DNA of 64,000 bases from Dehalococcoidia bacterium. Its GTDB lineage: Bacteria; Chloroflexota; Dehalococcoidia; UBA2979. Positions 12,226 to 35,897 of this stretch are shown in pieces. The stretch's first letter is position 1. Each line of letters starts with the position of its first letter. Position numbers and translations under genes: made by a program. The DNA lies in NCBI GenBank assembly GCA_965262725.1, contig OZ253555.1, positions 1,477,256 to 1,541,255 on the forward strand. The letters are read 5' to 3'. Below the pieces are notes generated by a model. That model searched no databases, was not told the DNA's origin, and saw only the letters and a list, made by a program, of their open reading frames with translations.

Positions 12226-12229
<4 letters not shown>

Positions 12230-12462
12230 CGCACCTCACCGCCCTCGGCGCGCCACTTCGCCACCTCATGTCTGGCGCTCTTGCCCCCGGGGCCGTAGCC
12301 GTACCTAATCAGGAACTCAGGAACGCCGCCATACTCGATCGAGATGACGGCGGACTCAGCGGTCTTGTCGTGGCCGGGCAGGAAGAAGGAGCCGATCGTC
12401 GTCTCGGCACCGCAACCGCACCAACACTCACCAGTCGGCAGCAGGCGTTCTGATGAGGCCAC
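12226..12462 (-). CDS. Small Cys-rich hypothetical protein (78 aa), translationally coupled to hsdM (ATGA overlap).
   Basis: [22 protein letters not shown] looks like a zinc-ribbon-like cluster. The stop overlaps the hsdM start by 4 nt. Confidence 0.5.
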
Positions 12463-12916
12463 TCGGGTTGTCTCCTCCGGGAAAGGTCTGCCTCAGCAGT
12501 CTTGGACGATGCCCAAGGATATGCTTCTGGATCAGGGTCGTCCAAGGCAGCGAGCGATCGTGTGCGGGCCGGTCGCGGTCGTCGTCGAGGTCGCGGCGCA
12601 GCGCCTGATGAGCACGCTTGAAGCCAGCCGTGAAGCATCCCTCGGCCGTCAACACCCGATGGGCGGCTCACTCCCGGCAACGGGAAACCTGACCGCCCAC
12701 GCCGCAGTCCGACGCGTCCCGCCCCATGGCGGATCGATGCTCGGCGCACCGCCGCGGAGCTTGCTCGCATGTCGGTCGATGTGATCAGCTGCGCTCAAGA
12801 AGACGCGAACGACGCACCGCCGCGGCGCGCCCCCCGGCAGGTGGCGAGATTCTCGCCACCCCCCTCGACGGCCTGCTAGCATCAGCGCCTGCTCGACATC
12901 CCCCCGGGAGGCGGCG

Positions 12917-15572: not shown

Positions 15573-15790
15573 CGAGAAGCCCTCCGGGTTGTTCTGCAGC
15601 ACTCATGGGGTGTCGTGCCAGGAGCACTGATCCATTAGGCCGTCGCAGGAACCAACCCGCCGGGTCGCACGAGCAGCGCGAAGCGGGAGAGGAACTGAGA
15701 CACGATGGCCTTGTACCTGGGCGGAGGTACTGGAGCTGCCACGGACCTGAGGACTGGCACCGGGCCATCGCCGCGGAAGGGGGTGAGCTG

Positions 15791-16603: not shown

Positions 16604-17138
16604 CCTCCCGCGTTGACTCCTGCTGCCCGCGCGCGCCCTGCGCGTGACGCGTGCCTCCGGGCTTGCTCATCCCTCGAGGCGCACGCCGTCGGAATGCCAG
16701 CGGAGGTCGTCGCCGTGCGCGCAGCCATCGACGCCGTCGTCGGTGCGGATGTGCATCCAGCCGCGGGAGATGCCGTCGGGCTCGGCGACCGTGCGGTTCG
16801 GCAGGCACGCCACGATCGGCGCGGCGACCGAGTCGCCCTTCGCACACGGTCAGGCACGTGTCGACGGCGACCTCGACCGGCAGGCGATCGTCGAACCGCG
16901 CTGACGCTCCCCGTCTCGATCTCGGCACCTGCGAGTGGACAATTTACCAGCTGCGCGCTGATCCCCCCAAATCGGGATCGTATCGGTCCCCCGAAGATCT
17001 GGGAGGACTCGCCCCGGAGTGTCAGTCGGGAGCGACCGCCCGGGGCAACCGACCTTCGTCGCGCAACCGCATTCCGGGACCTCTGGTGGTCGCGCTCGCC
17101 GCACGCGGCGTCGACATCCTGAGTGCGAGCGCGCCGCG

Positions 17139-19670: not shown

Positions 19671-19920
19671 CGGCGTGAGAGCGAGATCATACGCCCGGCC
19701 GCGCGGGCGGCACACCAAGGGGAGGGCTCCTCCGCGCCTCCCTCGCCGGTGCGCGTGCGGCAGGGGTGAGCAGCCGGCGCTGCGCCCGGGCGAGCGAGAG
19801 GAGGCGGGCGGCCGCGGTCGCCCGCCCGCCGTACACGCCCCGGCGAGGCGCCGGCTGAGCCGCCCGCTCCGCGGGCCGGGCACCGCGCGTCGGCTGCCCC
19901 GCTCACGTCCCGATCCCCCG

Positions 19921-19968
19921 CCCGTGCCGGTGCCCGTGCCGGTGCCCGTGCCCGTGCCCGTGCCCGTG
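19921..19968. repeat. Tandem hexanucleotide repeat (CCSGTG) x8, immediately 5' of / overlapping the extended KAP NTPase reading frame.
   Basis: cccgtg ccggtg cccgtg ccggtg cccgtg cccgtg cccgtg cccgtg, read directly. On the minus strand it is in-frame and encodes (GT)8. Confidence 0.9.
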
Positions 19969-20119
19969 CCGCGAAGCCTCAACGGCGCCGGAGGACGTGG
20001 CGACCCCGTCCGTCTCAGGGCGTGCGAGGGGAGGGGACGTCACAACCGACCGCGCAGCCGGCGCGTCGGCCGGCTAGACCCAAGCCGGCTGCCGGTCCAG
20101 GGACGAGCGGCGAACTGCC

Positions 20120-20469
20120 GCGTCGGGGACGTGCCGGGCCGTGACGTCCGTGACGAGATCGAAGAACCACGAGCCAGCTCCCGGTGCGACGATCACTTCC
20201 CCGATGAGCAGGCCCAGGTCGACCCTGTCCCGGACGCCGGGGGCTTCAGCCTTGTCGTACACGAGGGCGGCAGCGTCGAAGAACTTGTGGCCTGCGCCCA
20301 GGGCCTGCACGTCACGGCGCTCTACGCGCTGGTCGAGGGCGAGTACGTCTCCTACATCCTCGGCGCGCCGCAGTTCGTGAACGAGGACTTCGCCGGGCTC
20401 TTCGCCGACAGCGTTCCCCCGCTCACGCCGTTCGTCGTCAAGAGCGAGGGGCCTCCCGCAGCCAACTGA
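20120..20469 (+). pseudogene. Possible 5'-truncated gene remnant (C-terminal ~110 aa of an unknown protein).
   Basis: The tail of the artefactual ORF 18928..20469 switches to protein-like composition: ...GGFSLVVHEGGSVEELVACAQGLHVTALYALVEGEYVSYILGAPQFVNEDFAGLFADSVPPLTPFVVKSEG. An overlapping minus-strand ORF 20074..20310 is an alternative reading. Confidence 0.25.
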
Positions 20470-20942
20470 TTTCTCCCTACAGGCCCTGCGTCCGCCGGTT
20501 CGCGATCGCGACCCGATGCAGGTTCAGCCGGGCCGCGCGGCCCGGGCGCTCTCGATAATCAGCATCGAGCGAGACACGTGCGCGCTCACCGAGGGCGTCA
20601 CTGAGCAGGTTGGACCTCTCTTTCCAGTTGAAGGACTGAAGGCGCGCGCTCAGGCGGGACACTTCTTGCTCCGCCCACGCCTGAGCATGCCGCTCCAGCC
20701 AAGCGGGCCGATGCCGCGACTCGCGTGCTGCTGACTCTCCGGGGCGGTGTACGGGGGTGCCCGAACCGCCTGACGCGTCCCCGGCATGTGAATCGCCAGG
20801 ATCTATAGACCAGCAAACGGCCAGATCGCCAGGGTCATTGATCCACTTCGCCAGGGTCATTGAGCCACCCCTCCGGGGGGTCTGACCACTCGGGCCGCCG
20901 GTACGGCCACCATCGCCTGCATCCCCAGCGGAGGGAGCAGCG

Positions 20943-22523
20943 ATGGCCTACCGGGAGGTACACGGGGTGGAGATCCAGGAGATCATTCGACGCTGGCAGG
21001 CGGGGCTCAGCCAGCGCCGCATCGCCAGCGGGATGGGGTTGTCGCGTCAGACGGTCCGCCGCTACATCGACGCGGCCGAAGCGGCCGGCCTCACACCTGA
21101 CGGTCCCGAGCCGAGTGAGGAGCAGCTCGCCGCGCTGGCGACGCTGAGCCTCTCCGGCCCGCGGCAGGTCGAGGCGCCGAGCGAAGAGCTGCTCTCGCCC
21201 TGGGCGGAGCAGATCGAGCGCTGGCTTGAGACCGACCGCCTGCAACTGACGCGCATCCAGGAGCTCCTCGCCGGACGAGGCTGCGAGGTCTCCTACACCA
21301 CGCTGCGGCGTTTCATCCGGCGCCGCGGCTGGCGCCACCGGCTGCCGTCGACCGTGCGCATGGACGACGGGCCGCCGGGCGAGGTGGCGGAGATGGACTT
21401 CGGCCGCCTCGGCTTCATCCGGGACCCCGAGAGCGGCCGCCGGCGCGCGGTGTGGGCGCTGGTCGTCGTCTGGCGCTACTCACGCCACTGCTTTGTGTGG
21501 CCCACCACCAGCCAGACGCTGGACGCTGTGATCGAGGGCCTGGAGGAGGCCTGGGCCTTCTTCGGGGGCGTGCCGCGCTACCTCGTCATCGATAACTTCC
21601 CGGCCGCCGTCGCCGGGGCCGACGCGCTGCACCCGCGCTTCACGCGGGGCTTCCTCGAGTACGCCCGCCACAGAGGCTTCATCACCGACCCCGCGCGCGT
21701 GCGTCATCCCCGCGACAAGCCGCGCGTCGAGCGCAGCATCCCCTACGTGCGCGAGCGCCTCTTCAAGGGCGGCGACTTCCGGGACGTCGTCGACCTGCGC
21801 TCCGCCGCCCGCAGCTGGTGCCTGGAGGTGGCGGGACAGCGCATCCACGGCACGACCCGCCGCCGGCCGCTCGAGGTCTTCCGGGAGGAGGAGCTCCCTC
21901 TCCTCGCTCCCTGGGACGGCGAGCCCTACGAGGTCCCCGACTGGCGGACCGCCACGGTCCATCCCGACCACCACATCGCCTGCCAGTACGCGCTGTACTC
22001 GGTGCCGTCCACGGCCTGCCCGCCCCGCCAGAAGGTCGAGGTGCAGCTCGGCTCGAAGCTGGTGCGCATCTACCACCGCGGTCAGCTCATCAAGGTCCAC
22101 CCGCGCCAGCGCCGGGGCGGCCGCGCCACCGACCCGAACGACTACCCGGCCGAGCTCACCCCCTACACCAGGCGGGCGCCCGACTGGATACAGCGCCGCG
22201 CCGCCGAGCTGGGGGAGGCCGTGGGCGCCTACGCCGAGCGTCTCTTCGAGGGCTCCCTGCCCTGGGCGAAGCTCCGGCAGGGCCACAAGCTGCTGCGCCT
22301 CGCCGAGCGCTACTCCCCGGACCGCCTCGACGCCGCCTGCCGCCGCGCGCTCGAGGTCGACCTCATCGACGTGCGCCGCCTCGAGCGCATCCTCGTCCGC
22401 GCCCTCGACCAGGAGAGCACCCCAGACCAGCCCGAGCTGCCGCCTCCTCCGGGGCGCTTCGCCCGCTCGGGCTCCGTCTTCGCCCAGTCCCGCACGCAGA
22501 CCCCGACAGGAGCACCACGATGA
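20943..22523 (+). CDS. istA: IS21-family transposase IstA (HTH plus DDE integrase core), 526 aa.
   Basis: N-terminal HTH (LSQRRIASGMGLSRQTVRRYI). rve-type catalytic region. IstA-typical length and IstA-IstB ATGA overlap. Confidence 0.9.
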   Translation: MAYREVHGVEIQEIIRRWQAGLSQRRIASGMGLSRQTVRRYIDAAEAAGLTPDGPEPSEEQLAALATLSLSGPRQVEAPSEELLSPWAEQIERWLETDRLQLTRIQELLAGRGCEVSYTTLRRFIRRRGWRHRLPSTVRMDDGPPGEVAEMDFGRLGFIRDPESGRRRAVWALVVVWRYSRHCFVWPTTSQTLDAVIEGLEEAWAFFGGVPRYLVIDNFPAAVAGADALHPRFTRGFLEYARHRGFITDPARVRHPRDKPRVERSIPYVRERLFKGGDFRDVVDLRSAARSWCLEVAGQRIHGTTRRRPLEVFREEELPLLAPWDGEPYEVPDWRTATVHPDHHIACQYALYSVPSTACPPRQKVEVQLGSKLVRIYHRGQLIKVHPRQRRGGRATDPNDYPAELTPYTRRAPDWIQRRAAELGEAVGAYAERLFEGSLPWAKLRQGHKLLRLAERYSPDRLDAACRRALEVDLIDVRRLERILVRALDQESTPDQPELPPPPGRFARSGSVFAQSRTQTPTGAPR

Positions 22524-23293
22524 CCGCCACCACCTCAGACCTCCGCCCGCTGCTCAAGCGCCTCAAGCTCGGCCGTATGCTCGACACCCTGCCCGAGCGC
22601 ATCGCCCTCGCGCGGCGCGACCACCTCGACTACGCGGACTTCCTGCAGATCCTGCTCGTCGACGAGGTGAGCCGCCGCGACCACGGGCGGTTGGAGCTGC
22701 GCCTGCGCCAGGCCGGCTTCGAGCAGCTCTGCCGCCTCGAGGACTTCGACTGGGCGGCCGCCATCCGGCTCGACCGCCGCCTGCTCGACGCCGCCTTCTC
22801 GCTGCACTTCCTCGATCGCCGCGAGCACGTCCTGCTCGTCGGCCCCGTCGGCGTCGGCAAGAGCTTCTTAGCCCAGGCGCTCGGCTACTCAGCCGTCCGC
22901 TCCGGACGCAGCGTCCGCTTCGCCCCGGCCGACCACTACTTCCGCGAGATGGCGCAGGCCCGCGTCGACCACTCGGCCGAGAAGGTCTTCCGAAGCTTCC
23001 TCGCGCCCGACCTGCTCATCCTCGACGACCTCGGGCTCCATCGCCTCAGCGCGCAGCAGTCCATCGACCTCTACGAGCTGGTCATCGGGCGCCACCGCAG
23101 CTCCAGCTTCGTCATCACCTCGAACCGCGCCGTGGAGGAATGGCTGGGTCTCTTCGACGACCCGATCCTCGGCAACAGCGCCCTCGACCGCCTCGCCAAC
23201 GCCAGCTACCAGATCGTGATCGAGGGCGATAGCTACCGCCAGCGGCTCTCGCCGCACCGCGCCCTGCTCGAGGCGCAGACGGGAGGTGATTGA
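22520..23293 (+). CDS. istB: IS21-family ATP-binding helper IstB (DnaC-like AAA+), 257 aa.
   Basis: Walker A LVGPVGVGKSFLA. Walker B LLILDDLG. The start ATG overlaps the istA stop (ATGA at 22520-22523). Confidence 0.9.
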   Translation: MTATTSDLRPLLKRLKLGRMLDTLPERIALARRDHLDYADFLQILLVDEVSRRDHGRLELRLRQAGFEQLCRLEDFDWAAAIRLDRRLLDAAFSLHFLDRREHVLLVGPVGVGKSFLAQALGYSAVRSGRSVRFAPADHYFREMAQARVDHSAEKVFRSFLAPDLLILDDLGLHRLSAQQSIDLYELVIGRHRSSSFVITSNRAVEEWLGLFDDPILGNSALDRLANASYQIVIEGDSYRQRLSPHRALLEAQTGGD

Positions 23294-23485
23294 CGCGCTA
23301 GACGCTCACTGATATCAAGCCGCCTACCGGCGTCCCGGGTGGTCTAATGACCGTGGCGACGCGTGGCTCAATGACCCTGGCGATCGACACGGCACTATGT
23401 TGGCACGTATAAATTCACATAGATTCACGTCTAATTCACTGACAGTAGGCCGACAACCGGTCAGAATCCCATCTCGTTACGGGCA

Positions 23486-23800
23486 GTGCGCTTGCACGGG
23501 GTGCTCGCCGGGTTTGCCCAGGGCGCTAGCTACGACGTGCAGGTACGCGCAGTCGCGGACGTCGAGGGAGCCTGGTCCGGGAGCCGGACGGGAACGCCCG
23601 CCGAGCCCGGCGGCTCGACCGCGACGGCGGCGACCCTGGCGCTCGACGCCCCGCTGGGGGGCATGATCGAGCCGGGAACGGACACCGACTACTTCAAGCT
23701 CGTGTTGAGCAGTGCGGCCACGATTCTGATCTGGACGTCAGGAGACCTCGATACGGTGGGGGTATTGCTGGACAGCGGCGGCGCGGAGCTGGAGTCATGA
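23486..23800 (+). pseudogene. 5'-truncated remnant of a secreted protein: C-terminal bacterial pre-peptidase (PPC)-like domain.
   Basis: ...ASYDVQVRAV then GSTATAATLALDAPLGGMIEPGTDTDYFKLVLSSAATILIWTSGDLDTVGVLLDSGG. There is no signal peptide or N-terminal domain. The frame opens only 50 nt downstream of the IS21 right end. Confidence 0.4.
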
Positions 23801-23852
23801 CTAGCGCATCCCTATCTCACGAAGTCCATCGCAGTGCGAGCGGATTGCCCAA

Positions 23853-26558
23853 GTGACGAGTCTGCTGCGGCTTCTCGATCCGAACGAGCCTGACTCGGCG
23901 GCGCGAGCTGCCGGGGCTGTCGCCGCCCTGCTCGACCGCCTGCCGTCACCACGCTCAATCGCCGAACTTCGTCTCGGGCCGGAGGACGTTGAGTGGCTGC
24001 GAGTGTGGGCGGGCGGGATGTCCGCTGCAGCGGCGAGGTGGAGCGGCGACCGGCGGCTCCTGGGCGACCTGGGGGCCGCGCGCCAGCAGGCGTTCGGGCT
24101 GGTCTTCCTCGCACTCGCGGCTGAGACGGCGCGGCGGGATGCGGCCGAGGGGCACGTGTGGGGCCCCGTCCGGCGCCGCGTATCCAGCGCGGCCGCCTCG
24201 ATGCTCTTCAGTCAGGGGCAACCGAAGCAAGCGCTCAAGGACGCGCTGGAGTCCGCGTGCAGGCGCTGGCAGTTGCGGCATGTCTTTGGAGAGGAAGGCC
24301 TGCAAGCCTGGTACGCCTCGGTCTACCTTCAGTTCGGGTTCACGGAACGGACCATCGAGTCGCGACTGCCGGCGCGGCTTGCGAATGCCGAAGCGCTGCC
24401 CATAGCGGTTCACCACCTGCTCCACGACCGGAGACTGAAGTCCGACTCGTTCGCGTCCCTCTGGAACACCCTTATCGGTGTGCGCCGTCGCAACGTATCG
24501 GACTTGAGAGCCCGCCAAGTGCTTGCGGGGAGCCCGTGGATTCTGCCGGAGTGGACTGACGCGCTCCTCGAGGCTGCCGTGGCGCGCATGGAGTTGACGC
24601 CGTCGGGCCTGTCCGATGAAGAGGTTGCGCCCTCGCTCTTCACCGTTCCGCGTCTGGAGTGGGTCGGTCAGCAACCGCGCTTCATCGCCGAACTGGTCAA
24701 CCTTGCCGACGTCGCCGGCGAGTTGGAGCCGGGTGCCTACCGATTGCGGGCCGGCACGGTCAGCGTGGAGTTCACGATCGACGACCTCGGCACCCCTCAC
24801 GGCCTGCGCCCGGTGGGACTTCCACTGTGGCCAGCCCGGCTCACCGCCACAGTTGAGCAGCACCACGGTGAGGACTCATGGGATCCCGTCGCTGGCGAAG
24901 AGATGGTCCTGTGGGAACCCTCCGACGAAGTCGCCGCCTTCCGCGACGACGGGTTCCCGCTGGACGCCTGGAGCACCGCGCTGCACCCAAATCAGCCCTA
25001 CACACTCGTGCTTGCACCGGGACTCGACGTCAAGCCCGTCCAAGACCGTTGGGCGCATGCGGATGGATGCCTCGCGGTCCAGTTGCCGGCTGGCTGGGCG
25101 GAGGATACGGGCGTGTACCTCGATGGCGAGAGAATCTGGGATCCGCTCGTCACCGCCGATGGCCAGAAGACGCTTGCTGGGCTGTCTATGCCTCCCGCTG
25201 GCACGAGGCTGGGTGAAGCACCGAGGATTCAGTTGTTCGGCCTGTCGGAGCGGGTCACTGAAGTAAAGGCCGATCGGCGTGCAGTGGCCTTCGAGCAGCA
25301 CGGGGGGAGCATCGAAGCGTTCCTTTCCCCCGGCGAGCACGCCGCCCGCCCCTCCGTGCTCGTCCGCACCAAAGACGCAAGCGGAGAGGTTAGGGCGGGG
25401 CGGATTCAGCTCACCTGGTTCGGGGCCCAGCACCTTCGCCCGTACGGCTGGGCGCCGTTCCCGGTCGGTGTGATCGATGAGCGCGATCTCGGTCAGCGCA
25501 TCCGCGCGTTCGCGCCGGAGTGGCGTGAGCCGACATTGCTGGTTGGCAACCGTCCGATCGGGCGGATCGGCAGCCGCGGTCGAGCACGGGGCTCGGTGGG
25601 AGCGTGGGGCGCGCCGCTTCTCATCGCCGATGGGCAGTTCAATCGCGAGCCCGACCGCCAACTGCTGCTGGCCGATGCCATCACGTCTCGCGGCGTCATC
25701 CTGGACATGAACGATGACGACTTCGGAGGCGCGGCCCTGGTCACCCTCCGGCAGCCCGTCAACCTCGGCGAGGTCAGAGTCTTCGGCATCGATCGCGGCG
25801 GCGCTGTCGACGACATCCGGCCCACCCCAACGGGTGAGCGGTCGTGGGTGATCGAGGTGCCTCCAGAGAACGCCCTGGCGATCGTCTACGGGGAGGAATG
25901 GATTGGGGGGTGGTGGTGGCGGCCCCCCGTACCGCCCCAGTCGGCCGAAGGTGCCGTTCACCTGATAAGGCTGCTGCGCGACGCGCGGGCTCCGCTGCTC
26001 TCGCGTGACTATGGCGGTTGGGCGCGGGGAGCGCTGCGCGCGCACCCCGCCAGCGCGCTCGTCTGGCTCTTCAACCTCAGCGAAGCTGGAACGCTCTCCG
26101 CCGCGCCGCCGGAATCAGACGACTTCGCTCCAGTGGTTCGCGACCTGCTCGACGGATGGGAGCCGGACCACATATGCGTCGCTCACCTTGCCCGAACTCT
26201 GCGTGACTCAAGCGAGGAGTTCATCGAAGGGCTCGCCGACACTGCTCTGCGAGCGCCGGGCCCGACCGCACGCCTGCTCAGTTCAGTCTTCGAGGACTCG
26301 GGGCTCCGGCGGCGTGTCCGCGGAGCCCTCCTTGAGGCGCTTGGTTGGGGAGACGCATCGAGCGCCGGCGTGCTCAATGAGATCGGATGGCAGTTCGATG
26401 TGGACAGCGGGTTCCTTGAACGTCTCGGGCGGTTAGCGAACGATGGGTTGCGCGGGCAACCGATTCCCCGCGTGCAGCGGCAGAATCTGCTCGTGGCGAT
26501 GAACCTGAGCGGCGACTTTCGGCGGTGGCTCGCCGGACGCCTGATCTCGGAGGACTGA
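23853..26558 (+). CDS. druH: Large (901 aa) protein with no recognisable domain: a DruH-like partner of the downstream DUF1998 helicase (Druantia type III-like architecture).
   Basis: GTG start at 23853, stop at 26558. Composition is non-repetitive and Trp-rich. No known motifs were recognised. The stop lies 4 nt before the SD/GTG of the next gene. Confidence 0.8.
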   Translation: MTSLLRLLDPNEPDSAARAAGAVAALLDRLPSPRSIAELRLGPEDVEWLRVWAGGMSAAAARWSGDRRLLGDLGAARQQAFGLVFLALAAETARRDAAEGHVWGPVRRRVSSAAASMLFSQGQPKQALKDALESACRRWQLRHVFGEEGLQAWYASVYLQFGFTERTIESRLPARLANAEALPIAVHHLLHDRRLKSDSFASLWNTLIGVRRRNVSDLRARQVLAGSPWILPEWTDALLEAAVARMELTPSGLSDEEVAPSLFTVPRLEWVGQQPRFIAELVNLADVAGELEPGAYRLRAGTVSVEFTIDDLGTPHGLRPVGLPLWPARLTATVEQHHGEDSWDPVAGEEMVLWEPSDEVAAFRDDGFPLDAWSTALHPNQPYTLVLAPGLDVKPVQDRWAHADGCLAVQLPAGWAEDTGVYLDGERIWDPLVTADGQKTLAGLSMPPAGTRLGEAPRIQLFGLSERVTEVKADRRAVAFEQHGGSIEAFLSPGEHAARPSVLVRTKDASGEVRAGRIQLTWFGAQHLRPYGWAPFPVGVIDERDLGQRIRAFAPEWREPTLLVGNRPIGRIGSRGRARGSVGAWGAPLLIADGQFNREPDRQLLLADAITSRGVILDMNDDDFGGAALVTLRQPVNLGEVRVFGIDRGGAVDDIRPTPTGERSWVIEVPPENALAIVYGEEWIGGWWWRPPVPPQSAEGAVHLIRLLRDARAPLLSRDYGGWARGALRAHPASALVWLFNLSEAGTLSAAPPESDDFAPVVRDLLDGWEPDHICVAHLARTLRDSSEEFIEGLADTALRAPGPTARLLSSVFEDSGLRRRVRGALLEALGWGDASSAGVLNEIGWQFDVDSGFLERLGRLANDGLRGQPIPRVQRQNLLVAMNLSGDFRRWLAGRLISED

Positions 26559-26562
26559 CGTA

Positions 26563-29500
26563 GTGCCGGGGAAGCTGGACTCACTCGGGCTCGCGGAGTC
26601 GCTGCGGCGACGAATGGCCGACTTCGCGTCGGCGGACCTGTACGTGACGGACCCCGAGATTCAGCGCGCCGCCGGGGCCGTATGGGAGGACGAGGAGTCG
26701 GGGCTGGTTGGCGAACTGTGGGTCGAGGGGATCATGCCGCCAATGCCCGGTCAGCGCCTACAGAAGATCGCGGAAGCGGGCGGGTTCGACCAAGACTTGC
26801 TCGGGCGCCTGACGGAGTCTGGCGCTTGGGGCGACTGGCGGCTTCACGAGCACCAGGAGCGCGCCATTCGCGCTGCCTCGAGCGATCTAGGCGGCGCCGT
26901 CATGGTTTCTGCGGGCACTGGCGCTGGGAAGACGGAGAGCTTCCTGTTGCCGCTCGTCGACCGGCTGTGGAGCGCGCCTCGCCGCGGTTCCGGCATGCGC
27001 GCGCTCATCCTCTACCCCATGAACGCTCTCGTCCGTGACCAGATGGATCGCCTTGATGCGTGGCTTGGCGGTCAGTCCCGGCTCACCTATTTCCACTTCA
27101 CGAGCGAGACACCCGAGACTGAGTCCGAGGCGGACCGGCGTGGGATAGCGAAGCAGTTCGCGAGCCGCGTTCGATCGCGGGACGAAGCGCGGCGCGCTCC
27201 TCCCGACATCTGCGTGACGAACTACTCGATGCTCGAGTACATGCTCGCTAGGCCGCAGGACGCACCATTCTTCGGCGAGGGGCTCGAGGTCGTCGTCCTC
27301 GATGAGGCGCACCTCTACACGGGGACGCTCGCGAGCGAGATCATGTTCCTGCTGCGCCGGGTGCTGCTCCGCTGCGGACTGACCGCGACGGACATCCTGC
27401 ACCTCGCAACGTCGGCGACGCTCGGCGGCGACGACGACGAACTGCGGGCGTTCCTCTCCCAGCTCACGGCCACGCCGCCCGGGCGCGCCTGCGTCATCCG
27501 GGGGCGACCTCAGCCGTCCGCGCCGCTGCCTGCGTCAGGCAGCGACCAACGTGCCGGAGCACTCGTGCAGCTCGATGGTAGGCTCCCTTCCAACGCTGGT
27601 GGGACCGATGTGTTGTCAATACTGGGGGCGGAGACTGACGACGACTCCGACGCGCCGATCGTGCTTGGTCGGCGGTTGGCGGACTGGCCCGCCACGGAGC
27701 GCCTGCGGTCCGCCCTGCACGCCGAGCCTGGAGTGCCACACCTTCTAGTCGAACTCGCCGAGAAGGTGTGGCCTCACGGCGGCAAATCGAATGTCGCTGC
27801 CACCGCCGCTCTGCTGCGCTGGACGTCAATAGCTCAATCGGGGCCGGACGCTCCGCTGCTCGCGCATCGGCTGCATCTGCCGCTGCGCGGCCCTGGCGGG
27901 TTGGGCCTCTGCCTCAACGGCGACTGCTCAGGCCCCGAGGAACGGCAGAAGACCGGATGCGGCGCTGTCCAGGATGCCCGTGGCGACCGATGCCGCTGGT
28001 GTTCCTCTGTCGTCCTGCCGATCGCGCGCTGCGAGGGCTGCGGGCTCGTGGTGCTCACCGCGCGGCAGCAACACGCGAGATTCGTGCCGGAACCCGTTCC
28101 TGGTCGCGGTACGAGGCGAACCGCGATGGAAGTGCGCGGCTTACTGCTCGGGTTCGCCGACCCTGCACCGGGGGCGGTGGAAGTGCTCCCGGACGGTTCG
28201 GTGGGAGGCGGAGGCGTGCGCCTGCGCCCCCTGCCGCCGCTCGATGCTGACACGCCGTACGAGACGGGCTGCGCACACGAATTATTCGAGCCGCTCGCGC
28301 GCGGCGCCGGGTTGCTGCTGAGCGTGATCGCCGAGACATCTCTCGCCGCTATGCCGCCGGACAGCGACCCCGATCGCGCCCGCACGCGGCCCGCCGGGGG
28401 CAGGCGGCTGCTGGTGTTCAGTGACAGCCGCCGGGAGGCTGCCCGGCTCGGGCCGGCGCTCACCTGGGGCCATGAGGTGCAGCTAGTTCGGGCGGAGATC
28501 CTGCGGCTGATGGACGCTGCATCCCCGGACGATGTGTCTGCAACCCGCGAGTACCTCAAGTCTGACATTGCTCGCCTGCAGAATCTGCTGGAGCGGGATC
28601 CCCCATCATCGACGCGCCAACTCATCGAGCGGGACTTGGCTGACCGGGTGACGGACCTACGGGCGCACATCCTGGGCGGGCCCATGCACGACTGGGAGCG
28701 CGCCTTGGCCCGTTCGGACAAGCTCGCTGAGATCCTGTCGTTTGACGGGGCGAGCATCCACCGGCGGGCCGAGTGGAGTGACGAGTCGTGGAGCGAGAAT
28801 CACCGGGCGAACGGCAGGCGCGCCCGCGCGTTGCTGGCGCGTGAGTTCGTCGCCCCACCCGGTCGGAGCGCCGGCGCGTCGCTCGAGGCGCTGGGGCTGG
28901 CGCTCGTGGACTATCCGGAGCTGCGTGAACTGCCGCCGCCAACGCTCGGCCAGTTGCCGAGTACGATCCGCGAGCGTGCGGTCGAACAGTGGCCCCAGTT
29001 CGTCGCAGCCCTGCTCGACTCGCTTCGCGTTGACGGCGGGATTACAACGGGCGAACAGGAACTCGACGACTACTACTCCGAGGACCATGCGCCGATCGGA
29101 AAGTGGATCAGCTTCGAAGGCCCGGACCGGCGCGACCGCGCCCGGTTCCGCGGCGCCACCTCGCGGCACAGGCGGAATGCCTTCCTCATCCGATTGCTGC
29201 TCGACTTCGGCGCGACGGGCGAGCAGCTGGATGAGTTCGAGCCGTTGCTGGCGCGCGCCGCCTTCGACTGGTTGCGAACCGCGGAGCCACGCCCCGAGTG
29301 GCTGGAGCGCCACCAGACCGAGCCCTGGTTCCGCGTGCGGTTCCCCGATCTCGCGCTGCGCAGGCCGGACGAGGTCTGGCTGGACGAGAGCCGCCTCATC
29401 GTCGGGTTCGTAGTGAATGGCCGCCATCCGCGGGGAACCGGCCGCTTCGTGCAGCGGAGGCAATCCGAGCTTGACGCCGATCCCCGCTTCCAGCGCCTGC

Positions 29501-31686
29501 GGTCGGAGCTCCGTGAGGAACCGTCGCTCCGTGTCGGCCTGTGGGCGGAGGAGCACTCCGCGCAGCTTTCGCCGGAAGAAGCGCGGCGTATTCAGGATCT
29601 CTTCGAGAGCGGGGTCCGCAACGTGCTGAGCTCGAGCACGACGATGGAGCTGGGTGTCGACATCGGCGGCCTGAGCGGCGTCCTCATGACCAACACGCCG
29701 CCCAGCCGCGCCCGCTACCTACAGCGAGCCGGGCGCGCGGGACGGCGCGGCGAGGGAGCCTCGGTCACCCTGCTGTTCGCCCGCAACCAACCGTTCGACC
29801 AAGAAGTCTTCCGGAACTTCGCGCAGTATCTCAGTGCCCCGATGCGGCCCCCGTCGGTACTGCTCGAACGGGACCGTCTGTCGCTGCGGCACGCCTACTC
29901 GCACGTTCTCGGCAGCTTCTTCCGCGCGCTGTGGGAGCCGGGCCAGAGTACGAGCACCATGGGAGCGTTCCGTCAGATGGGGGACTTCACAGGCAGCCCG
30001 TCGACCGTGCGGTGGCGATCCGGCCCCAAACCCGGGATCAGCGATCAGCCGCACCCGCCCGATCCCGCCTCGCCACCTGCCTGGTGGACCGCCGATGGCG
30101 GCCCACTCGAGGCACAGTTTCGGCGGTACATCGAGCACCTGGCCGGCCACCCGGGCGGGATCGCCGCCGACCTTCGGACCATCTTGTCCAACGCGAGAGC
30201 CGAGGAGCAGCTCGACGACTGGCCAAGATTCTGCGAGGAACTCCTCGACCGCTTCGACGAGTCGACCGCCGCATGGCGCGGCGAGTTCGACGAGTTCCTC
30301 GCCGCATGGGACCTGGCTGGGACAAGGCCGCTTGCTAACTTTCTCCACTTCCAGCTCGCCGAGCTGCGCGGGCGACCGGTGATCGCGCATCTCGCCGAGC
30401 ACCAGTTCCTGCCTCGCTTCGGTTTCCCACTGGGAGTCCTGCAGCTTCGCATCGACACCGACCGGGCCAATGGTGATTCCTGGGCGCTCGATCGGTCCGG
30501 GGCGTTGGCGCTGCGGGAGTACGCGCCGGGTGCGAAGGTGCTGGCGGGTGGACGGCAGATCACCTCTCGCGGGCTCGTCAAGCACTGGGTCGGGGAAGAC
30601 GAACAAGCGCTCGGTGCCCAGCGCCGCCTCCTGACGTGCTCCGAAGAACACTCGTATCTCTCAACCGGCGTCGCGCTGCACGATGAGTGCCCGTACTGCG
30701 GGGCAGCGCCGTCGGGGTCGGGAAACCAGGTCATCAGGGTCGCGCGCGGCTTCAAGACCGCGGCGTGGGATCCTCCGCGGCGCGCACGAGGAACGGAGCT
30801 CGTTGGCATGATCGAGGTCGTGCCGCCCGCCATCGGTCACGCGATGTCCGGCGAGCACACGGATGTCGAGATCGAGTCCGTGCCCGGCCTCCGCGCGGTC
30901 CACCTCGAGGGTGCGCAGCTGATCACCCTCAATGCCGGGGAGCACGGCTTCGGATTTCACATCTGCTATCGGTGCGGCTACGCGGGCTCCGAGCTTACGC
31001 GAGCGGCCACCGGGGCTCAGAACCTGCCGCCCGCGGCTCAGGATCACTCGCCCCTCTGGATGCGCCGCCGCCGCCGCGCTTGCTGGACCCAGGGCGCGCT
31101 GTCTTCGTTCGCTCGCAACCGTGTCCTGCTGCACGAGGAGACGACGGACGCGCTCGTGCTGGACTTCCGGGGCTGGAGTGTGGACCTGCGGGCAGAACGC
31201 GGTGCCCTGCTCGCCTGGGCTGCCGGATTGCCGCATGCGGTCGGGCAGACGCTCGACCTCGACGCCGGGGATGTCGCCGCCTCCCCGTACCCATTCAGCG
31301 ACGGCGTGGGCATCATCCTCCACGACACGGCTGCGGGCGGCGCCGGCCATGTCTCCGAACTGCTGCGAGGCTCCATGGCGCGCGATGTCCTCGAAGCCCT
31401 CCGCGTCCGCCTGTACGTCGACGAGGCGCACAACGCCCGATGCGTGCAGGGCTGCCTCTCGTGCGTGTTGAGCTACGAGGCGCAGCACTTGGTCGAAGTC
31501 GGCCTCGATCGCCCGCGTGGGCTCGCGCTCCTCGACGCGCTCCTCTCGGGCGGCGCAGGCACCATGCCGGAGCCCAGCCCCGCGCCGGCCGATGGGACAC
31601 CGATGCTGCAGCACGATGCGGAGGAACGGATAGCTCACGCTGCGGCGCGCAGACGCGGGCGATCCCGAAGGCGGACTTCAGGGTGA
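26563..31686 (+). CDS. druE: DruE-like SF2 helicase (1707 aa) with a C-terminal DUF1998 zinc-binding domain.
   Basis: Motif I VSAGTGAGKTESFLLP. Motif Ia LYPMNALVRDQ. TNYSMLEYML. Motif II VVLDEAHLYTG. Motif VI YLQRAGRAGRRGEG. C-terminal Cys clusters CPYCGAAPSG, FHICYRCGYAG and CVQGCLSCV match the DUF1998 4-Cys motif. GTG start with SD GGAGGA at 26549-26554. Confidence 0.9.
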   Translation: MPGKLDSLGLAESLRRRMADFASADLYVTDPEIQRAAGAVWEDEESGLVGELWVEGIMPPMPGQRLQKIAEAGGFDQDLLGRLTESGAWGDWRLHEHQERAIRAASSDLGGAVMVSAGTGAGKTESFLLPLVDRLWSAPRRGSGMRALILYPMNALVRDQMDRLDAWLGGQSRLTYFHFTSETPETESEADRRGIAKQFASRVRSRDEARRAPPDICVTNYSMLEYMLARPQDAPFFGEGLEVVVLDEAHLYTGTLASEIMFLLRRVLLRCGLTATDILHLATSATLGGDDDELRAFLSQLTATPPGRACVIRGRPQPSAPLPASGSDQRAGALVQLDGRLPSNAGGTDVLSILGAETDDDSDAPIVLGRRLADWPATERLRSALHAEPGVPHLLVELAEKVWPHGGKSNVAATAALLRWTSIAQSGPDAPLLAHRLHLPLRGPGGLGLCLNGDCSGPEERQKTGCGAVQDARGDRCRWCSSVVLPIARCEGCGLVVLTARQQHARFVPEPVPGRGTRRTAMEVRGLLLGFADPAPGAVEVLPDGSVGGGGVRLRPLPPLDADTPYETGCAHELFEPLARGAGLLLSVIAETSLAAMPPDSDPDRARTRPAGGRRLLVFSDSRREAARLGPALTWGHEVQLVRAEILRLMDAASPDDVSATREYLKSDIARLQNLLERDPPSSTRQLIERDLADRVTDLRAHILGGPMHDWERALARSDKLAEILSFDGASIHRRAEWSDESWSENHRANGRRARALLAREFVAPPGRSAGASLEALGLALVDYPELRELPPPTLGQLPSTIRERAVEQWPQFVAALLDSLRVDGGITTGEQELDDYYSEDHAPIGKWISFEGPDRRDRARFRGATSRHRRNAFLIRLLLDFGATGEQLDEFEPLLARAAFDWLRTAEPRPEWLERHQTEPWFRVRFPDLALRRPDEVWLDESRLIVGFVVNGRHPRGTGRFVQRRQSELDADPRFQRLRSELREEPSLRVGLWAEEHSAQLSPEEARRIQDLFESGVRNVLSSSTTMELGVDIGGLSGVLMTNTPPSRARYLQRAGRAGRRGEGASVTLLFARNQPFDQEVFRNFAQYLSAPMRPPSVLLERDRLSLRHAYSHVLGSFFRALWEPGQSTSTMGAFRQMGDFTGSPSTVRWRSGPKPGISDQPHPPDPASPPAWWTADGGPLEAQFRRYIEHLAGHPGGIAADLRTILSNARAEEQLDDWPRFCEELLDRFDESTAAWRGEFDEFLAAWDLAGTRPLANFLHFQLAELRGRPVIAHLAEHQFLPRFGFPLGVLQLRIDTDRANGDSWALDRSGALALREYAPGAKVLAGGRQITSRGLVKHWVGEDEQALGAQRRLLTCSEEHSYLSTGVALHDECPYCGAAPSGSGNQVIRVARGFKTAAWDPPRRARGTELVGMIEVVPPAIGHAMSGEHTDVEIESVPGLRAVHLEGAQLITLNAGEHGFGFHICYRCGYAGSELTRAATGAQNLPPAAQDHSPLWMRRRRRACWTQGALSSFARNRVLLHEETTDALVLDFRGWSVDLRAERGALLAWAAGLPHAVGQTLDLDAGDVAASPYPFSDGVGIILHDTAAGGAGHVSELLRGSMARDVLEALRVRLYVDEAHNARCVQGCLSCVLSYEAQHLVEVGLDRPRGLALLDALLSGGAGTMPEPSPAPADGTPMLQHDAEERIAHAAARRRGRSRRRTSG

Positions 31687-32208
31687 TCAACAGCCGTCGT
31701 GTAGTTGGCGGTATAGCCGTACCACCCTCCCAAAGCAGCGCTCAGAACGAGAGCGCCAGATACAACCTGGCACATCCCTTTTCCCTTTTCGCACGACCGC
31801 AGCTTCATACCGATGTTTGCCCGGTGGTGACACCAGACGGCAGCGGCAGAGCCAGTGCCAAGGGGCCTCGTCTCCGTAGGCATGCGTGGCGCAAGGGAGT
31901 GGTATGAGCCAGGACGGAACGTCATGTGAGTCCGTCATGTCAGGTTCAGAGAGGGCTCCAAGACGAGTTGGTGGCACAGGCTGGGACGGCTGGCGGCGAA
32001 CTCAAAACCCGTTGGGGCCTCGAATTGTCGGCGACGGCAAACTGGCAAGAACACAATTGCTAAGGAAGGCAGCAATTGGGGACCAGTTTGGGGATCAACA
32101 CGGGGGCACAGGACGGTACGACAGGGGACGCGGAGTGACGGCGACCGCTCGATTCACGATTGGAGCGGGACCAGATCGCACGTCCGGGGACCAATCAACA
32201 CCGATTCT

Positions 32209-32264
32209 GGGGGCTTCATAAGCCCTTGGTCGCAGGTTCGAATCCTGCCCCTGCTACCAACCTT
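32209..32264 (+). repeat. 3' half of tRNA-Met(CAT) (tRNA positions ~26-76, plus CCA and 5 downstream nt). An att-site-like partial copy of the tRNA gene found at 54441..54516.
   Basis: gggggcttcataagcccttggtcgcaggttcgaatcctgcccctgctaccaacctt matches the tRNA gene at 54441..54516 (opposite orientation) except for one base in the anticodon stem. There is no D-arm or 5' acceptor strand upstream. Confidence 0.8.
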
Positions 32265-32271
32265 CGCGCTC

Positions 32272-32586
32272 TTGCTGGCCGCGTGCGATTCCGGGTCCGG
32301 GGACTCCTCGGCGAGCGCGCCCGCCGCGACTTCCGATGGCCCCACCGGCGAGCTCTCCGCGAACGACGCGACGGAGGCAGAGCTCGTTTCGGCCTTCGAA
32401 GCAGCGGGTATCACCAACGCCAGCCAGTGGGCGCACGAGGTCGAGGAGTACCGCCCCTACCCGGCGGACGACCCCGACTTCGCCGCCGGCGGCCACCTGA
32501 ACGAGCTGAGCTTCCACACCATCGCCTTGTACGCGTTCGAAGAAAATGAATGGCGTGACAGATCGCCAGATCCCCGATCGGAGTAG
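32272..32586 (+). CDS. ComEA-like helix-hairpin-helix lipoprotein fragment. The lipobox LLAAC is present but there is no room for a signal peptide, so it is probably 5'-truncated at the att-like repeat.
   Basis: The reading frame opens inside the tRNA fragment (TFALLLAAC DSGSG...). NDATEAELVSAFEAAGITNASQWAHEVEEYRPY resembles the ComEA HhH DNA-binding region. Only a TTG start is available. Confidence 0.4.
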   Translation: MLAACDSGSGDSSASAPAATSDGPTGELSANDATEAELVSAFEAAGITNASQWAHEVEEYRPYPADDPDFAAGGHLNELSFHTIALYAFEENEWRDRSPDPRSE

Positions 32587-32634
32587 GGACCGAATGGCAC
32601 GTCCGGGGAGTACGCGAGACGACTTCTCGAGACC

Positions 32635-33375
32635 TCAGATTGTTAGTCGCGGGCCCAGCTCCCGAAGCCGGTCGCGGCGGCGGAGGTAGTCCGTCACCGC
32701 TTGCGCGACGATGGCCCAGTACTCGGACGTGTGGCCCCGGACGCGCAGATGGGCGAGTTCGTGAGCGACGATGTAGTCGATGATCGCGGGCGGGGCCATG
32801 ATGACGCGCCAGTTGAAGCGCAGCGTCCCGTCAGGGGAGCAACTCGCCCAGCGCTTGCGCTGACCCCGGATCAGAGTCGCCTTCGGATGGACGCCGAGGA
32901 GGCCTGCCATTCGCTCGATACGGGGCGGGAGCTCCAGGGCGGCGCGTTCGCGGTACCACGCCTCGAATGCGGCGCGTACGGTCACTATCCGCTCTTCGCC
33001 CCGCACGGTCCGCGGCACACCCACATCGAAGTGCCAGTGGCGAAAGCGGATTGCGACCCCATCGTCGTCGGTCGGATGGACGGTCATCGCCACGGACCGC
33101 CCTAGGTACGGGAGCGACTCCCCGCTCACAAACCGCCGAGGCGGCGGAGCGGCAGACGCCGCGCCGTCGTGCCGCATGATCCACCGTGCGCGGCGCCGCA
33201 CGGCCGCTTCGAGATGGTCGGCCGGCGTGTCGGCCGGCGCCGCCACGGTGACCGATCCTGGCTCATCGACTGTGATCTGGATCGTCTTGCGCCGCCTCCG
33301 GCTGCGGACGACCTGGTAGCGGATCCGGGCGTCGCCGAAGTCGACCTCGCCACGCTCTGTCATGCGAGGCGTCAC
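32635..33375 (-). CDS. YgjP-like zinc metallopeptidase (DUF45/WLM-like; HExxH), 246 aa.
   Basis: HELAHL plus a downstream E/H. Overall similarity to UPF0054/YgjP hydrolases, a family often linked to R-M loci. Confidence 0.8.
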   Translation of the reverse strand: MTPRMTERGEVDFGDARIRYQVVRSRRRRKTIQITVDEPGSVTVAAPADTPADHLEAAVRRRARWIMRHDGAASAAPPPRRFVSGESLPYLGRSVAMTVHPTDDDGVAIRFRHWHFDVGVPRTVRGEERIVTVRAAFEAWYRERAALELPPRIERMAGLLGVHPKATLIRGQRKRWASCSPDGTLRFNWRVIMAPPAIIDYIVAHELAHLRVRGHTSEYWAIVAQAVTDYLRRRDRLRELGPRLTI

Positions 33376-33529
33376 CGTGCCACCTCAACGACCTGTCTGA
33401 AGAGCTCGTCGAGATCGCCCTCGTCGTAGCGGTTGGTTCGGCGGAGCAGCCGCTTGATGTCGCGTCGCATCTCCTGCTGGACATCGAGGTGCTCGCGCCA
33501 GTCGATGATCGAGCGATGCTGTTGGCGTG

Positions 33530-34513
33530 TCACGGCAGAATCTCTCTCAGTACAGCCGCTTGTGTTTCGGTCGCCCGCATGTTCTGGAGGTCTCGGCGAA
33601 TCGCGGCTGCAGGGTCCTCCTGATCCGCTTGCAGGACGCGGACGATGGCCTCGAACGGCGCCGAAGCGAGTTCAGCGAGAGCGGGCATGGCCGCGATCTC
33701 CTCGGGGGAGATTCCTCTGCGGTCCCGATACCCAGCGAGGAACCCGCGGGCAAAGACCGGCCGCAGGACTCGAGAGCCTCGTCGCTCACGCCCGAAGCTG
33801 AGAACGCCGCGGACGATGTCTGACGCCCGCGGGCCACGTTCCAGCTTGTCGAAGTCAAGCAACGCGACCATGCCATCGTCCCTGAAGAGTGTGTTTCGCC
33901 CGTGGTAGTCGTTGTGCAGCCAGCCAGTTGGCAGGGCATCGAGGAGCCCGGAAGGCAGTGAGACCGAGATGGCCTCGAGTCGCCGCCGGTAGCGCCGGAA
34001 CTCGGGCTCCAGCGGCGAGCTGCCGAACGCGCGCCGGAGTTCGTCCACCACCTCGCGTGGTGTCGCCACGAAGCGACGCACGTCTTCCTCCACGTGCGAG
34101 GCCTTGGCGGCAGCAACGAAGCGGTCGGCCAGGTCGTGGAACTCGGCGAGGCGACGTCCGGCTTCCCGCGCCTGGTCGAGTCGCGCAAAGTCGAAGTGCT
34201 CGCCGTCCACGAGCTCGAAGAGGGTCCATGGGAACCCTTCTTCGTCCACCACGACAGGGTCGGCGGTCCTCGATTCGATGACGCGCGCGACCGGGAAACC
34301 GAGCGCGTCGAGGTGCTGCTGGAACCGAATCTGGAACCGCACTCGCTCGGGATCGCGATTGCGCCGGTACCTCCGGACCGCGAACGAACGCCCGCGCGAG
34401 TCGACGACACGCAAGTTGTCGTTGCGGGTGCCCGCGTCGAATGCCCCAACGAACCGCGGCTGGTCGAGCGCGTAGCGGGCGAGCACCGAGGTTAGGGCGG
34501 CTGGTGAATCCAC
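33530..34513 (-). CDS. Phosphotransferase-family protein (APH / homoserine kinase II / choline-kinase-like), 327 aa.
   Basis: Catalytic loop HNDYHGRN (cf. HGDxHxxN). DFD metal-binding motif LLDFD. Confidence 0.8.
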   Translation of the reverse strand: MDSPAALTSVLARYALDQPRFVGAFDAGTRNDNLRVVDSRGRSFAVRRYRRNRDPERVRFQIRFQQHLDALGFPVARVIESRTADPVVVDEEGFPWTLFELVDGEHFDFARLDQAREAGRRLAEFHDLADRFVAAAKASHVEEDVRRFVATPREVVDELRRAFGSSPLEPEFRRYRRRLEAISVSLPSGLLDALPTGWLHNDYHGRNTLFRDDGMVALLDFDKLERGPRASDIVRGVLSFGRERRGSRVLRPVFARGFLAGYRDRRGISPEEIAAMPALAELASAPFEAIVRVLQADQEDPAAAIRRDLQNMRATETQAAVLREILP

Positions 34514-34981
34514 GGCTGTTCGGTGTCGCTCCCATCAGGATCGTCTACAGGTTAGGGCTGCCGCGTGCATCGCCCAACGGGAGGTCGTACTCCCGAGAGG
34601 ACCACACCGTGGTGGCGTGGTTCTGGTCGCGTGCGCACCGAGGTGCCGCCTGCAGCAGTCTCAACGGGACGGAACCATCAGGGCTGTCGCCCTCCAACCA
34701 CAGCTCCGTCAAGCCCGTGAGCTCTCCCCGAGAAGGCCGCCCAGGGGCTCCGATCGTGATGCTCCGCCACATATAGCCTCGGTGAGCACGAGGCCGAACT
34801 GTACGGGGCGGAGGCGAGGAGTCTTCAGCGCGCAGTGACCTCGAGCGAGCATTGAGCCGACACCGGCATCGATGGGGACACACACTGAGAAGGCACAGGC
34901 GGTCCTAGGAGTGGTGGACGAGTGTCGATCTGCTCCTGCTCAAGGGGCGTGCGGGGCGATGTCGGCAGCAGAGGGTGAACA

Positions 34982-35419
34982 GTGATGCCCGGTGACCTCG
35001 TCCAGCTAGACCGAGTAGACGTCATGTATGTGCGCGAGTACGGGAAGCCGAGCGAAGAGGCCTTCGCTGAATTGGAAGAGGTGGTGGGGCTGAAAGGAAG
35101 GCGCTTCTACGGGGTCGTCAACGAGGGTGCCGGGCAGTACCGGGCATGCGTCCGACGCCGGAAGCAAGACGACCCCTCCAGTCTTGGCCTCAGAACAGGC
35201 GCTATCGAGGGTGGACTGTACGCATTTGAACGGCTGATCGGCGACTACAAGGCCCTGATCGCCCTCATCGGCCCTACGTTCGAGGGAATGCGCGCCCGGC
35301 ATCCCGTCGACTCGTCAAGGCCCTCTATCGAGTTCTATCGTCGGCACGACGAGATCGTGCTGTACCTTCCCGTTTCTGAATCGGAATCTAGCGGGATAGC
35401 AGGTCAGACTGGGGACTAG
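34982..35419 (+). CDS. GyrI-like small-molecule-binding domain protein, 145 aa.
   Basis: FYGVVNEGAGQYRACV...GLYAFERLIGDYKALIALIGPTFEGMRARHPVDSSRPSIEFY follows the GyrI-like/SbmC effector-domain pattern. Confidence 0.65.
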   Translation: MMPGDLVQLDRVDVMYVREYGKPSEEAFAELEEVVGLKGRRFYGVVNEGAGQYRACVRRRKQDDPSSLGLRTGAIEGGLYAFERLIGDYKALIALIGPTFEGMRARHPVDSSRPSIEFYRRHDEIVLYLPVSESESSGIAGQTGD

Positions 35420-35548
35420 TGGCCGCCTGTGTGCGGGCTCGAGCGGAACACCAAGCAGCGCCGCACATCCACGAGGCCGGCAGCGGCGTGAGTCACCGCA
35501 AGCCGCGTTCAGCAGCCACAGCGACGCCTATGCGCGGGTACTGAACCC

Positions 35549-35897
35549 GGAGCCGCTCGGTGTGTAAGGATTCTCCGTGTGAACGTGAGTCCCCCGCCCG
35601 CCGGGCTGTCTCGACGAGTCGCGAGGCTCATGGGCTCGGCGGTCGAGTCCGGTTGTCCGGCCGCGGGTGGGTACACCCCTGCCGAGCGTTGGTCTCTGAC
35701 CCTTGCGGACGGGCGGCGTGTCTTCGCCAAGACCGGCGCAGACACACCGCAGTCTGCGGTCGCCAGCTGGCTGCGTCGCGAACACCAGGCCTACCGAGAC
35801 ATCTCCGCACCCTTCATGCCGGCGCTGCTTGGATGGGACGACGACGGTCGTCACCCCTTGCTCCTCCTGGAGGAGCTCAGTCACGGGAAATGGCCCC
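35549..35897 (+). repeat. Copy A of a ~350-bp inverted repeat (upstream region plus first ~106 codons of the 35579 phosphotransferase gene).
   Basis: ~95% identical to the reverse complement of 40597..40946. The track ORFs 40572..40916(-) and 40302..40886(+) reproduce the sense and antisense translations of 35579..36505(+) and 35528..36199(-) almost residue for residue. Confidence 0.8.

Follow-up and report, generated by a model that had tools for sequence, protein, structure and literature searches.

An inverted half-copy of a tRNA(CAT) gene as a likely attachment-site relic of a defence island in an uncultured Chloroflexota lineage

The tRNA(CAT) half-copy and tRNA-targeting islands

Fragments of tRNA genes left behind by integrating elements are documented and common, and one such element, PYG1 of Pyrococcus yayanosii, has 44-bp repeats at a tRNA-Gln gene (PMC9897764). 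Islands, ICEs and prophages of this type, P4-like elements and PYG1 among them, use tyrosine integrases to enter the 3' part of a tRNA gene; they restore the gene at their near end and leave at the far end a partial second copy of it, from the anticodon region to the 3' end. When a circle integrates, the resulting repeats are direct, and many tRNA-targeting integrases prefer to cross over in the anticodon loop. Chromosomes can undergo inversion when inverted repeats, for example IS copies, prophages or rRNA operons, recombine with each other.

We analysed a 64,000-nt stretch of DNA (the window) from an uncultured Chloroflexota lineage whose nearest genomes are labelled Tepidiformaceae or Dehalococcoidia. 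It holds an intact tRNA(CAT) gene at 54 kb and, at 32 kb on the opposite strand, a copy of the 3' part of that gene. The locus resembles the known islands in having this 3'-part copy at one end and an intact gene at the other, an empty site in relatives, variable accessory cargo, and a tRNA which is a hotspot in sister species, where an integrase adjoins it; the short motifs repeated in both arms may be a further likeness. It differs in that the repeats are inverted rather than direct, the readable part of the element has no integrase gene, and the island looks degenerate. We consider it likely that the half-copy is the attR relic of an island of ~32 kb which integrated into this same tRNA(CAT) gene and was later inverted by recombination between two copies of a short repeat, here called S. 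Two ordinary processes, integration at a tRNA gene and then inversion, would thus explain an odd inverted half-tRNA, and the half-copy would be an ordinary by-product of mobile DNA, left by a known kind of island and not by a new kind of element.

Window positions 32210-32264 (+ strand) are the reverse complement of 54436-54490, with 54 of 55 bases identical and 22,171 nt between the arms. Within this match, the 45 nt from the anticodon loop to CCA form two exact copies in the window with no mismatch, where shuffled sequences (n=100) give an expectation of 0.00, and the T-arm motif GGTTCRAWTCC is confined within the window to the half-copy and the intact gene. The latter lies at 54441-54515 (- strand; ARAGORN and Rfam, 69 bits) and is called Met by ARAGORN; the anticodon CAT fits the elongator Met or the lysidine-modified Ile2 type. 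A preliminary description of this DNA had given the inverted match as 56 nt covering tRNA positions ~26-76. The inverted match stands, but base 32209 is mismatched and the repeat is therefore 55 nt long, covering positions 27-76 and 5 nt past CCA. We designate 32210-32264 as the putative attR core, a displaced tRNA(CAT) 3' part, and 54436-54490, the 3' part of the intact gene, as the putative attL core.

The two copies differ solely at position 31, which alignment confirmed to be C in the half-copy and A in the gene. The anticodon stem-loop of the half-copy reads GGGGC-TTCATAA-GCCCT, and the gene has an A31-G39 mismatch, also as previously described. A31 was present in all seven tRNA(CAT) copies compared, from the same species and two sister species, and C31 was confined to the half-copy, so the mismatch is the native state of this tRNA and C31 is peculiar to the half-copy. 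Throughout the strains and sister species the G1-U72 pair is conserved along with the A31-G39 mismatch. C31 does not represent a functional allele; a crossover in the anticodon loop, with C31 on the side derived from attP, is its simplest explanation, and the fully paired stem would then simply be dyad symmetry of the attP core of the island and not an improved tRNA.

The half-copy at 32210-32264 is not a functional tRNA gene. ARAGORN called no tRNA at 32.2 kb, and the DNA upstream of the half-copy gave no alignment with the 5' half of the intact gene, which agrees with the earlier reading by eye that neither a D-arm nor an acceptor strand is found there. In annotation, this sequence should be marked as an att relic, and neither as a tRNA nor as a pseudogene.

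Empty and occupied sites in related strains

Same-species assemblies were recognised next to the tRNA, where the amidohydrolase is 100% identical and the DNA to the right of the tRNA is 99.1-99.5% identical. Two of these assemblies, L001 and L030 (ERZ26167216 ctg495494, a 1.46-Mb contig), have an empty site, in which the tRNA is directly followed by a lipoprotein gene remnant, a YgjP-like peptidase gene and an APH kinase gene. Over 349 nt, comprising the tRNA and 270 nt upstream of it, L001 differs from the window by 2 mismatches, and directly past ACCAACCTT its sequence runs into window position 32265 onward. L030 matches the window from 34977 to 32210 (reverse complement) and then from 54436 to 64000, with 96% and 99.4% identity, and the two matches overlap within the 55-nt core. 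Window positions 32265..35762 (+) are thus collinear with the DNA directly past the intact tRNA in both strains, and lie in the opposite orientation to 54516 onward. As the empty-site junction links the right flank of the half-copy to the tRNA(CAT) gene at 54 kb, it proves, by sequence comparison, that this flank is the ancestral downstream flank of that gene. Since the empty-site tRNA has the upstream flank of 54516 onward, the half-copy derives from the same gene. The preliminary description had called the half-copy att-like, and the empty sites, together with the island DNA on its left, bear this out.

Both arms of the island are absent from the empty sites L001 and L030. The P arm of the proposed attR, beside the half-copy, extends over 31811..32209 (+) and contains a tandem TGGGGACCAG / TGGGGATCAA pair at 32077-32098 and GGGGACCAA at 32186-32194; over positions 31981-32079 it has 81% identity with an arm in L026, a 3x long-read contig of a related strain, which has tandem GGGGCCGAA repeats of its own. 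The arm beside the tRNA 3' end, which we term EL (the P' arm of the proposed attL), extends over 54274..54435 (-), with AT-rich sequence close to the core and a tandem TGGGGATCAA pair at 54350-54370. It is present by the tRNA in four occupied strains (L029, L031, L032 and L033), all of which keep the motif pair despite differing in the core-proximal 60 nt. Across the 64 kb, 0.34 copies of the motif TGGGGAYCAR are expected and four are present, each of them within one of the two arms, as one tandem pair per arm with both pairs in the same orientation relative to the core. These pairs look like putative arm-type integrase binding sites. The small ORFs of the arms, and the proteins of unknown function in L026 and L029, gave no Pfam or PHROGs matches.

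A 48-nt direct repeat of ~78% identity (GAT.C.CGAT.GGAG..GGGACC..AT.GCACGTCCGGGGA) was also noted, with one copy at 32143-32190 in the island arm just upstream of the half-copy and the other at 32561-32609 in the ancestral flank, before the YgjP stop. It may have been left by an earlier integration at this tRNA.

At the four occupied sites, the EL arm and then S follow the tRNA 3' end. In L029 (ERZ25069191 ctg586123) and L031, S is followed by a 3.9-kb island with a 176-aa ORF and Rad52-like, Uma2 and McrB-like genes, past which the YgjP/APH flank continues in un-inverted orientation; the P arm, the half-copy and the lipoprotein remnant are deleted in these two strains. The un-inverted flank at an occupied site suggests that ordinary integration is older than the inversion. 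The genes at the left end of the window match those that abut the tRNA-side S in L029 (176-aa ORF, 62% amino acid identity; Rad52-like, 80% nucleotide identity; McrB, 65% amino acid identity), which indicates that the window island is collinear with that of L029. This gene order is as expected if window positions 1-31744 are the cargo of a larger version of the L029 island, read from the tRNA side towards the half-copy.

The presence of the island varies within the species, with none in L030 and a smaller related one in L029. In sister species, the same tRNA has either a tyrosine integrase (Phage_integrase and DUF2924; L036-L038) immediately downstream or another defence island, which makes the tRNA(CAT) gene a recurrent hotspot, at which an island is present, absent or variant in natural populations. 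Tyrosine integrases that include a DUF2924 region, and faintly a RAMA one, are located at L036 3143-4450, L038 3123-4445 and L034 10571-11677, and those directly downstream of the orthologous tRNA(CAT) in sister species are a candidate integrase family for this site. Downstream of aroA, L026 has two more tRNA-like 3' halves (T-arm, acceptor and CCA) at 7470-7517 (-) and 7700-7750 (+), along with several short tandem motif sets; this region resembles an accumulation of att relics left by other elements.

Repeat S and the inverted orientation

Two copies of S are present in the window. One lies at 31745..31810 (+), between the druE stop codon (31686) and the P arm, and is inverted relative to the other, at 54187..54273 (-; 54187/54215-54273), between aroA and the EL arm. 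They are 87-93% identical, differ by a 7-nt indel, and have in common an exact 20-mer that the rest of the window lacks; the core of S, ~35-66 nt, is GCGCACCCCTCTTCGCACGACCGCAGCGTCATAC. Homology between strains repeatedly breaks at S. Through aroA and as far as position 54260, inside S, the window and L026 are 97% identical, after which L026 continues into unrelated DNA. L029 is 99% identical from the tRNA side to position 54187, the far edge of S, and then continues into island cargo. In the 74 nt common to L026 and L029, the window is L029-like on the tRNA side and L026-like on the aroA side, with a clean single switch of SNPs within GCGCACCCCTCTTC, although the L026 contig has a depth of only 3x and some of these informative SNPs may be errors. 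Read from these alignments, the 54-kb copy is a hybrid of the island-linked S of L029 and the aroA-linked S of L026. Homology breakpoints and a SNP switch inside S identify this copy as a rearrangement junction, and we propose it as the inversion junction.

Since integration of a circle yields direct repeats, a second event is needed to give inverted copies. The likely history would begin with integration of the island in tRNA(CAT) by site-specific recombination of the tyrosine-integrase type. The attP of the island would have had its own copy of 55 nt of the tRNA, reaching from the anticodon stem to 5 nt past CCA. Crossing over within the anticodon loop, or to the right of it, would have rebuilt the tRNA from the chromosomal 5' part (A31) and the island 3' part, and the original 3' part of the tRNA would have been displaced to the far end of the island and joined there to the left edge of attP (C31). 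The order would then have been chrA' - tRNA - EL - S - cargo - S - P arm - half-copy - lipoprotein remnant/YgjP/APH ... aroA - inverted S. If the EL-linked S later recombined with the inverted S downstream of aroA, the block between them, consisting of the cargo, the P arm, the half-copy and the chromosomal stretch to aroA, would flip and give the order cargo, S, P arm, half-copy (+), chromosomal stretch, aroA, hybrid S, EL, tRNA (-). This history predicts a further S copy (5'-GAGAGCGCC...CATAC-3', +) immediately to the left of window position 1. In the alignment with L029, window base 1 falls at the inner edge of S, and only ~12 nt at the window edge are S-like.

The inverted orientation is accordingly best explained, on the alignments, by a later inversion of at least 54 kb between S copies and not between tRNA copies. 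The preliminary description had offered, as one of two readings, an inversion between the two tRNA copies, with a 22-kb segment between them; an inversion is retained here, but the evidence places its crossover in S, and the flipped block would be ~54 kb or more. Like other repeat-driven chromosomal inversions, this one would involve a large flipped block and has a hybrid junction copy. It differs in that S, with a length of only ~66-90 nt, is not an IS or a gene, and in that one predicted breakpoint lies outside the window. The S homology, ~74 nt at roughly 90%, is short for recombination of the RecA type. No assembly with a complete un-inverted island was found, L029 being without the P arm and half-copy. 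The two IS21 copies and the two IS5-like copies were considered as inversion substrates and rejected, as no long DNA repeat links them.

Other histories have to be weighed against integration followed by S x S inversion. The island, either circular or a nearby segment and with attP intact, might first have joined the chromosome at the S past aroA, its integrase then recombining attP with the inverted attB of the tRNA, flipping the 22 kb between them and leaving attL and attR inverted to each other; in that case the 22-kb segment might flip reversibly. The end product would be topologically the same. Un-flipping 32265-54435 on paper restores both attB, as the L001/L030 junction, and attP, as P arm - core - EL arm, and both arms bear the same putative arm-site motif. 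However, L029 and L031 have EL and S on the tRNA with YgjP/APH un-inverted, which is the intermediate of the other route, and the hybrid SNP pattern is in S and not in the core. There is also no integrase in the window to drive such a flip, and no contig was found to join the P arm through the core to the EL arm. We hold this history to be unlikely. It is quite improbable that the inverted arrangement is an assembly artefact in which two strains or loci of a metagenome-derived genome were joined at S or at the 55-nt repeat. Related strains with differing arrangements do share public metagenomes, and the junction does fall in a repeat, but repeats of 55-90 nt are far below long-read length, the source contig is 3.67 Mb long (as identified by protein search), the hybrid S copy has a clean single switch, and an independent contig, L032, covers 54249-60755 at 99.3% identity.

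The opposite strands of half-copy and gene would be explained with no rearrangement at all if the half-copy marked a separate second tRNA-Met gene hit by the island, with its intact attL tRNA lying to the left of the window, as the preliminary description had entertained. This claim found no support. The tRNA to which L001 and L030 join the right flank of the half-copy is the one with the upstream flank of the 54-kb gene, as the 2 mismatches in 349 nt attest; the EL arm at the 54-kb gene shares the motif of the P arm; and the left end of the island matches the genes abutting the tRNA-side S in L029. A second locus is thus very unlikely. More improbable still is that, instead of being an att relic, the half-copy belongs to a tRNA pseudogene, complete but divergent or decaying. 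When the Rfam tRNA model was forced over 32182-32256 in a search of 651 nt, the full cloverleaf scored 25.1 bits (E = 0.0075), below the gathering score of 29. ARAGORN makes no call there, homology to a D-arm or 5' acceptor is lacking, and the DNA upstream is the island arm which the empty sites do not have.

The occurrence of S at the edges of both arms, past aroA, around a segment in L026 and by a restriction-modification (R-M)/YgjP locus in L004 raises the question of whether it could be a dedicated recombination site. S might then serve an unrecognised recombinase that swaps or flips cargo between fixed att arms, with the inversion as one of its products, although we regard this as decidedly doubtful. 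In L026, inverted S copies (2238-2284 and 4020-4077) surround a 1.7-kb segment with 309- and 180-aa ORFs of unknown function. In L004 (Tepidiformaceae), an S-like sequence is located at 10951-11020, ~220 nt past the type I R-M/YgjP locus, and L002 has a weak one. Hin/Gin-type switches and shufflons likewise have short inverted end sites, as around the two-gene segment of L026. Unlike in those systems, no invertase gene adjoins S, the S copies are only 80-93% alike, and no strain among the assemblies has both orientations of one segment; in the assemblies of other strains the flank is in the other orientation, but the island is lacking or different.

Other identities for S were also considered. 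A protein-coding function was rejected, because of a 7-nt indel between the copies and because the ORFs overlapping them have nothing in common. S as a structured RNA was rejected as well: it had no Rfam match at E = 1 or below, and its fold z-scores ranged from -2.0 to +0.1. No match to S or to the tRNA core was found in IMG/VR, or to the tRNA core in the JGI metagenomes. A degenerate S pattern gave 58 matches in the JGI metagenomes, nearly all in one unrelated, highly conserved coding sequence, indicating chance coincidence. S is the sole element of this locus possibly worth more work.

Island cargo and the DNA between half-copy and gene

The proposed island cargo, at 1..31744 (+), was annotated with Pfam and PADLOC and is homologous to L029 at its left end; it includes the 176-aa-like ORF and a Rad52-like remnant. 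An ArdC-like gene (590-1822) and a DUF5655 gene are also within the cargo. A type I R-M system follows, with hsdR at 4144-7281, hsdS pieces and hsdM at 10628-12229, and an IS5-like insertion lies within it (8546-9496). Between hsdS and hsdM, at 9522-10582, a nucleotidyltransferase and NTase-substrate-binding pair resembles toxin-antitoxins of the MNT/HEPN type. The remaining cargo consists of McrBC (12917-15572), a KAP-family NTPase (17139-19982), an IS21 element (20784-23390) and a Druantia type III-like druH/druE module (23853-31686). This module encodes a 901-aa protein (23853-26558), for which no family match was found, and a 1707-aa helicase (26563-31686) with a DruE match at 5.9e-188 and an MZB domain.

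The Druantia cassette is also present in a JGI contig (L035 3228-11065, 86% nucleotide identity) beside hsdM, ThsB-TIR and AbiE genes, indicating that it travels as a unit between defence islands. Its homology in L034 and L035 ends before S at 31745. The cargo is of the same kind as in defence islands at other hotspots (type I R-M, McrBC, KAP NTPase and Druantia type III), and other strains and species, such as L029 and L039, carry different defence cargo at the same tRNA. Nothing sets the island apart from these save its host, an uncultured Chloroflexota lineage related to Tepidiformaceae. The sites described here set the borders of a ~32-kb defence island in this poorly studied lineage.

No integrase or excisionase gene was found anywhere in the window, and outside IS elements neither positions 1-32209 nor 52.8-54.4 kb contain a Phage_integrase, serine-recombinase or rve-type integrase. 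With no integrase in the window, the island looks immobilised, and the Rad52 remnant and IS insertions make it look degenerate. The same IS21 (95-99% identical) is located at differing places among strains of the species, from which we infer that it is active in the population. Copies are found at L030 4279-6883, within the YgjP/APH flank, at L033 684-3289, 5616-7705 and 9383-9905, and at L026 8025-8764.

The ancestral flank to the right of the half-copy begins with a remnant of a ComEA-like lipoprotein gene (32265-32586), which lacks its start and its C-terminus. The reading frame of the remnant begins inside the half-copy; in full-length homologues a normal signal peptide is present and the C-terminus is ComEA-like. 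The remnant has no start codon or n-region, its C-terminus is divergent, and L001 has a 31-nt indel within it. As the same truncated remnant follows the tRNA in empty-site strains, the truncation is older than the island. Next are the YgjP-like peptidase gene (32635-33375, -) and the APH kinase gene (33530-34513, -). A scan of GTDB genomes by YgjP found only relatives of at most 79% identity, with no tRNA nearby. The YgjP-like gene is directly 3' of a type I hsdR in all relatives found (L002-L014, at about 6900-10730). No hsdR lies upstream of it in the window, which suggests that the window YgjP is the orphan of an older R-M locus, and probably the last piece of one at this hotspot.

Beyond this flank, the window diverges from L030 (after 35762) and from L029 (after 34880), and 35.8-52.7 kb is full of IS elements, so more than one rearrangement may separate the half-copy from the tRNA. 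Between 32265 and 54435, genes of recombinase type are limited to IS transposases and a group II intron reverse transcriptase. A pyrF-like gene is located at 41248-42012, consistent with the earlier placement of pyrF inside the 22-kb interval, and is followed by CYTH, GNAT and methyltransferase genes in an IS-rich mosaic. The core gene aroA (EPSP synthase; 52850..54115, +; Pfam 2.6e-109), whose homologues are named 3-phosphoshikimate 1-carboxyvinyltransferase in the source records, is separated from the tRNA by ~320 nt of non-coding DNA.

Further features of this interval were noted. The 5' part of an APH-like gene is present twice, in inverted repeats of 331 nt with 97% identity (35567-35897 and 40598-40928), between which lie an IS21 (36585-39018) and an IS110 (39145-40335). 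L030 has ~125 nt extra at the 35566/35567 boundary, suggesting further local rearrangement. A group II intron at 44696-48700, with Rfam domains at 44696-44917 and 46943-47079 and a reverse transcriptase/maturase at 47839-48699, is split by an IS5-like transposase gene at 45581-46645.
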